Shown here: one piece after another, positions 24,467 through 24,903 of the stretch
Layout of the letters: the number at the start of each line of letters is the position of its first letter
Position numbering within the stretch: position 1 is the first letter of the stretch
NCBI RefSeq assembly: GCF_044324785.1
Contig: NZ_CP172127.1
Origin: Escherichia coli
Lineage (GTDB): Bacteria; Pseudomonadota; Gammaproteobacteria; Enterobacterales; Enterobacteriaceae
Length of the DNA: 64,000 bases
Reading direction: 5' to 3' (one strand)
Notes under the pieces: model-generated
Databases searched by the model: none
Told to the model about the DNA's origin: nothing
The model's input: the letters and a program-made list of their open reading frames with translations, nothing else
Made by a program: the position numbers and the translations under genes

Positions 24467-24576
24467 AGGTGCCTACTTGTTTCTCATTAACTGGATAACT
24501 ACCTCATGGGGCGTTTGACAGCGACATGAGACCAGATGATTTGCCAACGAAGGAGAGATTAAATAATCAACAACAC

Positions 24577-24593
24577 AATGATAATGAGAATGG
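24577..24593 (-). promoter_or_regulatory. Fur-box-like AT-rich hexamer repeats (AATGATAATGAGAATGG) upstream of feoA
   Basis: GATAAT-like hexamer repeats in the feoA leader; weak match judged by eye. Confidence 0.35.
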
Positions 24594-24655
24594 TTTCTAT
24601 CAGCAATACTTAAAATGTGTGCGAATGTTGGTTTGAATAATAATCTGACTCAATG

Positions 24656-24669
24656 TTGATGTGGCTCAA
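24656..24669 (-). promoter_or_regulatory. FNR-site-like TTGAT-N4-CTCAA upstream of feoA
   Basis: 9 of 10 positions match TTGAT-N4-ATCAA; feo is known to be FNR- and Fur-regulated. Confidence 0.45.
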
Positions 24670-24903
24670 GGTTATATCGCAGCGAAAATATAATTCGAAT
24701 AGCGAATTACCAGGACTGGTTAATGTTTAATTAAAGTTTCAGTTGTTAATGAAGTGATAAATATTAACGGGATATATTGTGAGTTTGGTTGTGGAATAAA
24801 AAGGCCGGAGATATTCTCCGGCACTTTTATGTCAGGCAAGGCGTTCGTTGCCAGATGCGGCGTGAACGCCTTATCGCGCAGGTTTAGGGGCCAGTCCGGG
24901 CGT

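Follow-up and report, generated by a model that had tools for sequence, protein, structure and literature searches.

The feoABC promoter region of Escherichia coli: an FNR site, a Fur operator and the feoB/feoC junction

Results

The window, a 64,000-nucleotide (64-kb) stretch of E. coli DNA, carries tex/yhgF, feoA, feoB, and feoC in this order, all on the minus strand, as are the features located below. The gene feoA (24239..24466; ATG at 24466..24464) encodes 75 amino acids with a Pfam FeoA match of 44.6 bits, and appears in the ORF list as well as in the RefSeq annotation of the identical locus; feoB (21901..24222; ORF list and RefSeq) encodes 773 amino acids from the RefSeq ATG, with the Pfam domains FeoB_N, Gate, and FeoB_C; and feoC (21665..21901; ORF list) encodes 78 amino acids with a Pfam FeoC match of 49.9 bits. 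All Feo matches exceed the curated Pfam cutoffs, and FeoA, FeoB (G-domain, Gate, and FeoB_C), and FeoC follow one another on one strand, as in a Feo operon. A probable operon terminator, consisting of AAGCCCGG, a 13-nt loop, CCGGGCTT, and a T run (21608..21640), was read directly from the sequence, having been missed by the terminator scan, whose loop limit was 8 nt. In RefSeq, the gene order both in E. coli strain N3 and in K-12 is ompR, greB, yhgF (tex), feoA, feoB, feoC, rpnA. The 561 bases around the feature studied here are 100% identical to strain N3, and the same 561 bases were found in 5,425 of 5,426 complete E. coli genomes.

In an alignment with K-12 MG1655, the segment from 24710 to the feoA ATG differs by a single base, and the FNR 14-mer, the Fur operator, the −10 and −35 hexamers, the RstA/OmpR-like motif, and the TAATG junction of feoB and feoC are the same in both. 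Upstream of 24710 there are about 10 scattered substitutions, one of which is a T-to-C change within the ArcA/OmpR motif, and the differences from K-12 cluster in the REP element beside the tex stop codon, where a 19-nt indel leaves the window shorter. Because of this near-identity, K-12 data transfer directly to the window; a K-12 coordinate x (U00096.2) corresponds to window position 24669 − (x − 3537982), a conversion that held at two anchor points, the 14-mer of the FNR site and the 21-mer of the ArcA site. In vivo binding and regulation are cited below from the literature, and our own observations comprise the identity to K-12, the ranking of motifs, the conservation, and the geometry.

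The gap between the tex/yhgF stop codon (TAA, 24906..24904; gene end at 24904) and the feoA ATG spans 437 bp (24467..24903), the extent that a preliminary description of this DNA had given it. That description had taken the gap for a long feoA leader; only its last 106 nt or so, beginning near 24572, are leader, and the rest is made up of a REP element, the terminator of tex, some 220 bp of regulatory DNA, and the core promoter. The element that follows the tex/yhgF stop directly (core GATAAGGCGTTCACGCCGCATCTGGCA, 24849..24875), which we take, from its likeness to the REP consensus, to be a repetitive extragenic palindrome (REP), coincides with the indel in the K-12 alignment and with a weak, subthreshold match to the REP-derived Rfam family naRNA4 (26.2 bits, with 59.5 needed). 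The terminator scan placed the intrinsic terminator of tex/yhgF at 24795..24822, where GCCGGAGAATATCTCCGGC, an 8-bp stem with 6 G-C pairs, is followed by the T run CTTTTTATT. An Rfam search of positions 21500 to 25100 (E ≤ 1) returned subthreshold matches on the tex terminator and REP only, among them STnc390 (26.9 bits, with 50 needed), and none in the leader; a riboswitch or a known leader RNA was rejected, since the leader belongs to no Rfam family.

Two further regulatory inputs have been described in the upstream part of the gap. An ArcA direct-repeat site (24743..24763; in K-12, TTGTTAATGAAATGATAAATA on the opposite strand) lies at −191..−171 (PMC3798270, supplementary files 3, 4, and 6) and overlaps TTATCAnnnnnTTAACA, the motif contained in a fragment that was gel shifted by OmpR (Gerken et al. 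2020; PMC7315122). This site differs from K-12 by one base and is moderately conserved across genera. Next to it lies a conserved AT-rich block (AACTGAAACTTTAATTAAACATTAACC, 24718..24744; conservation of 0.6 to 0.9 across 79 distinct upstream sequences), which may itself resemble an ArcA box. Closer to the promoter, at −59..−44, there is an RstA/OmpR-like motif (CCAACATTCGCACACA, 24616..24631), at whose position Salmonella has TACATTCCGTCACA in the alignment; unphosphorylated OmpR did not shift a fragment carrying only this motif (PMC7315122).

The transcription start was derived from a published position. Park et al. (2013) gave the ArcA site at 3537888-3537908 as −191..−171 from the feoABC start (PMC3798270), so that the start falls at 3538079, which is window position 24572 (about ±2 nt). 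This start site is secondhand, having been taken into the supplementary table from EcoCyc or a published TSS set, and since position 24572 holds a T, with which transcripts seldom begin, it may be 1 to 2 nt off. There is no feoA start among the entries listed in the Kim 2012 and Ettwiller 2016 TSS sets, both from aerobic growth, and no feoA start-site data in PMC6397515 or PMC4676285. The literature-derived start lies downstream, or at the edge, of the FNR-like and Fur-like sites of the preliminary description, rather than upstream of both.

A candidate core promoter fits this start. The −10 hexamer TATCAT (24578..24583), which lies within the Fur operator and 6 nt upstream of the start, matches TATAAT at 5 of 6 positions and is at least 80 to 95% conserved. 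We infer the −35 hexamer to be TTGCTG (24601..24606; TTGATG in most other genera) from its conservation, its TTG being near-invariant across genera, and from the 17-bp spacing to the −10 hexamer; the assignment is consistent with the literature-derived start. A simple sigma-70 promoter scan gave no match at the feoA promoter because the −35 hexamer agrees with the consensus at only 3 of 6 positions, and its threshold was too strict for an activator-dependent promoter. The 106-nt untranslated leader (24467..24572) contains the ribosome-binding site AAGTAGG (24478..24472) and is poorly conserved except there and at TTGATTATTTAA, which directly follows the start. A structured leader was rejected, as the 136 nt comprising the leader and start region fold no better than chance (−26.1 kcal/mol; z = +0.38; 125 of 200 shuffles fold equally well). 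Also rejected was a 7-codon upstream ORF (ATG at 24527 to TGA at 24504), which lacks a ribosome-binding site and falls where conservation is poor.

The FNR site (24656..24669) reads TTGATGTGGCTCAA on the plus strand and TTGAGCCACATCAA on the feoA sense strand (24669..24656), and in the form TTGAG-CCAC-ATCAA it matches TTGAT-N4-ATCAA at 9 of 10 positions. Both half-sites read TTGA/TCAA, and it is the T, rather than G, at the first half-site position that distinguishes FNR sites (TTGA) from CRP sites (GTGA). A 9/10 match alone is not rare, since the window holds 5 where 2.2 are expected, a number reached in 7 of 100 shuffles. When the window was scanned with a matrix built from 62 other sites under ChIP-seq peaks (Myers et al.), from which feoA had been excluded, the feoA site ranked first in the 64 kb with 15.67 bits (runner-up, 12.31 bits), a score equal to the median of the 62 ChIP-bound training sites (range, 12.0 to 21.9 bits). 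Myers et al. (2013) reported exactly TTGAGCCACATCAA, at 3537982, as the predicted site at a K-12 FNR ChIP-seq peak (3537996/3538050), with a PatSer score of 14.6 and ln p of −13.13 against a threshold of −10.75 (PMC3688515, Table S6). The FNR-like site noticed in the preliminary description is thereby confirmed by matrix rank and by the K-12 peak. The operon is activated by FNR and ArcA (PMC4676285; PMC3688515; PMC3798270), and the finding of Myers et al. that expression did not change in an FNR-dependent manner under iron-replete conditions was attributed to Fur (PMC3688515). The center of the site lies 196.5 nt upstream of the feoA ATG and at about −90.5 from the start. Positions compatible with FNR activation are −41.5 or about −61.5, −71.5, −82.5, and −92.5; the feoA position is an uncommon one for FNR and is near the class I position of −92.5, the literature-derived start from which it is counted being perhaps 1 to 2 nt off.

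The Fur operator (GCTGATAGAAACCATTCTCATTATCATTGTGTTG, 24571..24604) consists of overlapping hexamer registers that extend from −32 to +2 and so overlap the core promoter, including TATCAT. On the plus strand, positions 24574 to 24591 read CACAAT-GATAAT-GAGAAT, the run to which the Fur-like hexamers at 24577-24593 of the preliminary description belong. The best agreement with the 19-mer Fur consensus GATAATGATAATCATTATC is 13/19, in two registers 6 bp apart; 13 other positions in the window match equally well or better, and at 3 or fewer mismatches there is no match anywhere in the 64 kb. By sequence alone, therefore, the Fur box does not stand above chance, and the case for it rests on its position, its conservation, and published ChIP-exo data. 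In K-12, Gao et al. (2023) found Fur ChIP-exo peak P104 at 3538047-3538080 under the iron-replete condition only (PMC10164565), which maps to window positions 24604..24571, and two Fur sites that overlap each other, one of 10.9 bits at 3538059 and one of 13.4 bits at 3538065, were predicted by Chen et al. (2007; PMC2189734) and map to 24592 and 24586. The hexamers noticed in the preliminary description belong to the Fur site of the feoABC promoter, the strength implied for their match being the part that did not hold. As for function, Beauchene et al. (2015) found feoA-lacZ to be repressed by Fur mainly anaerobically, from a promoter needing FNR and ArcA (PMC4676285), and feoA-lacZ was derepressed in fur mutants (PMC4676285; PMC7315122); these reports bear out the anaerobic and iron control of feo that the preliminary description had proposed.

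A weaker Fur-like cluster lies upstream (24636..24654, centered near −73), where a site of 10.5 bits was predicted at 3538006 (PMC2189734), which is window position 24645. It is poorly conserved, falls outside the Fur ChIP-exo peak, and corresponds to the second "Fur box" of the older literature; according to the account in PMC2189734, a pair of Fur boxes was annotated earlier by Kammler et al.

The arrangement was compared among 80 Enterobacteriaceae loci encoding FeoA, one genome per species, from which 79 distinct upstream sequences were profiled. The best FNR-matrix match in the DNA preceding feoA aligns with that of E. coli except in Cedecea and in one truncated or rearranged case. The FNR half-sites are kept in about 77 of the 80 species (TTG..../.TCAA, at least 95% conserved), and the columns of the 4-nt spacer equal the window in 50 to 90% of the sequences, with many variants, such as CCAC, CCAT, GAAT, CAAG, and CTAT. 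Conserved half-sites around a free spacer are the pattern to be expected of a palindrome that would be bound by a protein. The most conserved stretch of the intergenic region is TTG-N2-GATA-N-AAAC-N-ATTCTCATTATCAT, which comprises the TTG of the −35 hexamer, the Fur operator, and the −10 hexamer; within it, GA..AAAC.ATTCTCATTA.CAT is at least 95% conserved, and the block 24601..24578 is near-invariant across the 79 sequences. In 53 sequences the FNR center lies 71.5 bp from ATTCTCATTA, in 22 it lies 70.5 bp from it, and in 1 it lies 61.5 bp, or one helical turn less, from it; between the Fur box, with ATTCTCATTA, and the ATG there are anywhere from 52 to 138 nt. In Enterobacter, Lelliottia, Leclercia, and Silvania the leader is about 70 nt shorter with the FNR-to-promoter spacing unchanged. 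Given this fixed spacing and the variable leader, the core promoter makes up a single rigid module together with the FNR site and the Fur operator.

At the other end of feoB, the sequence TAATG (21899..21903) joins the feoB stop codon TAA (21903..21901) to the feoC start codon ATG (21901..21899), the last A of the one being the first base of the other. This one-nucleotide overlap, which the preliminary description had pointed out, is annotated identically by RefSeq in K-12 and in strain N3. In nearly all other Enterobacteriaceae, a TAA or TAG stop is followed directly by GGAG, with the ATG 6 to 13 nt later; the junction reads TAAGGACAC(A/..)GCAATG in E. albertii and E. whittamii. Within E. coli, the junction is 11 nt longer (CAC-TAA-GGACACGACA-ATG) in 815 of 5,409 complete genomes (about 15%), which include SE15 and an ST95 strain, both presumably of phylogroup B2, and reads CAT-TAATG in the remainder, including K-12 and the window. 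Since a spacer of the form TAA-GGA(G)-N-ATG is kept in nearly all other genera, in E. albertii and E. whittamii, and in the 815 E. coli genomes, the TAATG overlap is derived, the product of a lineage-restricted 11-bp deletion by which most E. coli lineages lost the feoC ribosome-binding site. When paired with the anti-Shine-Dalgarno sequence, the 22 nt that precede feoC give −3.0 kcal/mol, within the background inside feoB (−2.5 ± 2.1 kcal/mol), and in the spacer-containing E. coli allele they give −5.7 kcal/mol. The polymorphism of this junction is a small side observation of the present analysis.

Discussion

The region very probably represents the ordinary, already characterized feoABC promoter of E. 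coli, working through FNR, Fur, and feoB-feoC coupling as follows. A weak sigma-70 promoter (TTGCTG, 17 bp, TATCAT) would start transcription near 24572 and yield a 106-nt leader. When iron is plentiful, Fe2+-Fur would occupy an operator of about 30 bp over the spacer, the −10 hexamer, and the start point, keeping RNA polymerase off. Without oxygen, FNR bound to TTGAGCCACATCAA, some 90.5 bp upstream, would aid the polymerase from afar in the class I manner, and ArcA at −191..−171 together with OmpR/RstA-type regulators would supply further input. In iron-replete cells, repression by Fur would be expected to override activation. As feoC lacks a ribosome-binding site of its own, FeoC would most likely come from ribosomes that reinitiate on completing FeoB (termination-reinitiation coupling).

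The locus is the same as the K-12 feoABC promoter studied previously (PMC3688515, PMC10164565, PMC3798270, PMC7315122), a promoter on which PMC2189734 and PMC5519574 cite Kammler et al. (1993); the regulation of feoABC by FNR and Fur is already known, and the promoter has been mapped experimentally. It resembles the classical Fur-repressed promoters of fhuA, fepA, and entC in carrying GATAAT-like hexamers over the spacer, the −10 hexamer, and the start, which are occupied when iron is replete. It differs from them in its weaker match to the consensus (13/19) and in that repression in K-12 is visible mainly anaerobically, since the promoter needs FNR/ArcA to fire. The feoABC operon of Yersinia pestis has the same genes, a proven Fur site near its downstream promoter, and an upstream FNR-like motif; unlike the E. 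coli region, to which it bears no DNA similarity, it has two proposed promoters, and mutations in fnr or arcA had no effect there (PMC5519574).

Two other readings of the promoter region have to be weighed. If the Fur-like hexamers were AT-rich promoter sequence resembling an operator by chance, iron control would have to come from elsewhere. The modest match, equaled or surpassed at 13 other places in the window with none at 3 or fewer mismatches, is what such a reading would predict; it is contradicted, however, by the K-12 ChIP-exo peak, which lies exactly on the hexamers (PMC10164565), two overlapping Fur registers are predicted at them (PMC2189734), the hexamer block is the most conserved intergenic stretch across the 79 sequences, and feoA-lacZ is derepressed in fur mutants (PMC4676285; PMC7315122), so that chance resemblance is hardly credible. 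It is improbable, too, that there is a second, upstream promoter, starting near 24618-24621, at which FNR works as a class II activator, with a leader of about 155 nt and Fur as a roadblock. A weak promoter can be made out in TTGAGT-N17-CAACAT (24653..24625), a two-promoter arrangement whose P1 spans FNR has been proposed for Y. pestis feo (PMC5519574), and the earlier idea of a long leader would fit such an arrangement better. Against this, the candidate class II −10 region (24633..24625) is poorly conserved (0.1 to 0.7), FNR would come to lie at about −44.5 instead of the −41.5 position, and the literature-derived start is at 24572, not near 24618-24621. Moreover, the distance from the FNR site to the Fur box and −10 hexamer is constant, the one deviating species being shifted by exactly 10 bp, which points to the downstream promoter as the one that FNR serves. 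Conservation and geometry accordingly led us to reject a class II promoter immediately following the FNR site.

The rigid module, taken with the poor conservation of the class II −10 region, favors class I-like, helical-phase-dependent activation by FNR at the downstream promoter. FNR can activate from near −92, and in the spacing studies of the Busby laboratory, class I promoters dependent on FNR or CRP reportedly have the activator at −61.5, −71.5, −82.5, or −92.5. Like these, feo has a single FNR site far upstream of a weak −35 hexamer, on roughly the expected helical face, and its spacing across genera changes only by 1 bp or 10 bp; it differs in that −90.5 is toward the distant limit of known positions and that an RstA/OmpR-like site (−59..−44) comes between FNR and the polymerase. 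The likeness is one of geometry, direct contact with the polymerase alpha subunit being putative at feo.

At the feoB/feoC junction, it is a reasonable inference that feoC is translationally coupled to feoB at TAATG. Stop/start overlaps of this sort are found in coupled gene pairs, such as the UGAUG of trpB-trpA. The feoB-feoC pair resembles these in sharing a nucleotide within one operon and in the absence of a good ribosome-binding site for feoC; it differs from the trpB-trpA type in that its overlap is a recent, lineage-restricted deletion and no conserved feature, and its coupling is deduced from the arrangement. The background-level pairing upstream of feoC strengthens the case for reinitiation. 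Independent translation of feoC, through the in-frame GGTGAT 8 nt upstream or through weak initiation, with the overlap as a neutral by-product of the deletion, seems unlikely. The hexamer GGTGAT, which is complementary to the 16S 3′ end region, also precedes feoB and could act as a distant ribosome-binding site for feoC from within feoB, and the occurrence of both alleles as common forms in E. coli suggests no strong selection for either. These points are countered by the core anti-Shine-Dalgarno pairing upstream of feoC, which stays at background (−3.0 kcal/mol), and by the other genera, whose retention of a ribosome-binding site (TAAGGAG) within 6 to 13 nt makes feoC appear to need an initiation device. 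As to what is being coupled, the preliminary description of FeoC as a small regulator agrees with its database name; published work portrays FeoC as an Fe-S protein, sensitive to oxygen, that binds FeoB, protects it from FtsH, and has no transcriptional effect in Yersinia (PMC5519574).

To conclude, the control of feoABC by FNR and Fur dates from 1993 as textbook knowledge, and later genome-wide work has confirmed it. The present analysis corrects the anatomy of the region, with a leader of 106 nt rather than 437 nt and with Fur on the −10 hexamer, and two of its observations are mildly new: that the phasing of FNR and promoter is conserved from genus to genus, and that the TAATG overlap is polymorphic in origin. 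That the FNR-promoter distance is held within 1 bp or one helical turn supports far-upstream, phase-dependent activation. The natural allele pair, TAATG and TAAGGACACGACAATG, is suited to testing the coupling of FeoC to FeoB. We consider it possible, if somewhat doubtful, that the recent deletion changes the amount of FeoC made per FeoB, or ties FeoC strictly to FeoB translation, so that E. coli lineages differ in this respect; if so, they would differ in FeoB stability or in the uptake of ferrous iron under low oxygen.

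Regulatory and coding variation around feo

The leader between the feoABC start site and the feoA ATG is about 70 nt shorter in Enterobacter, Lelliottia, Leclercia and Silvania (comparison loci L041-L043, L049, L057, L061, L064, L070, L073, L074, L077-L080 and L082), placing the Fur box 46 to 58 nt from the ATG, while the spacing between the FNR site and the Fur box is the same in these genomes; most of the E. coli feoA leader is therefore dispensable. Directly after the start site, TTGATTATTTAA (24559-24570) is conserved at 0.6 to 0.9 across genera and resembles an additional hexamer of the GATAAT type, which may extend the Fur operator downstream or act as a signal of the initial transcribed region. 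H-NS ChIP-chip peaks have been reported under anaerobic growth over the leader and feoA and into the 5' end of feoB, at about 24033-24547 in the window (K-12 3538104-3538618), with another in the 3' part of tex, and the feoA FNR site (24656-24669) is listed without nucleoid-protein overlap.

Upstream of this block, the REP element that follows the tex stop codon (24849-24900) is 19 nt shorter than its K-12 counterpart (3560-3630 of locus L001), and this indel accounts for an identity to K-12 of only 93.6% over the whole intergenic region despite a near-identical promoter. The tex terminator hairpin scores as a terminator on the plus strand too, and the hairpin together with the REP element is overlain by two sub-threshold matches in the Rfam search, STnc390 (26.9 bits, E value of 0.007) and naRNA4 (26.2 bits), at 24787-24836 (+) and 24803-24880 (-).

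At the other end of the operon, the TAATG overlap of feoB and feoC (21899-21903) is not fixed in E. coli, which carries two junction alleles. In 815 of 5,409 complete E. coli genomes, SE15 and ST95-32 among them, the junction is longer by 11 nt, TAAGGACACGACAATG, which includes a partial ribosome-binding site (358-373 of L084, E. coli AVS0969); a spacer of this kind is also found in E. albertii (L004) and E. whittamii, and in nearly every other member of the Enterobacteriaceae. Separately, E. coli EC488 (L003; NZ_CP109874.1, 4058-4940) is devoid of feoABC: yhgF is followed at a distance of about 180 nt by an IS1, with rtcB directly after it, and on this arrangement a deletion beside the insertion sequence appears to have taken out the feo promoter and operon along with flanking genes.

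Within the window, the second- and third-ranked matches to the FNR matrix, CTGATTGAAATCAA (41134-41147; 12.3 bits) and TTAAGTTGAATCAA (9256-9269; 12.1 bits), score at the lowest end of the bound-site range. Among the other genera, Cedecea davisae and C. neteri (L071 and L081) have no FNR palindrome at the conserved position and retain the Fur/-10 block; both carry a perfect TTGAT(C/T)TAAATCAA about 370 to 380 nt upstream of feoA, far beyond the usual FNR position. Judged from these sequences, FNR control of feo may have been relocated upstream in Cedecea.
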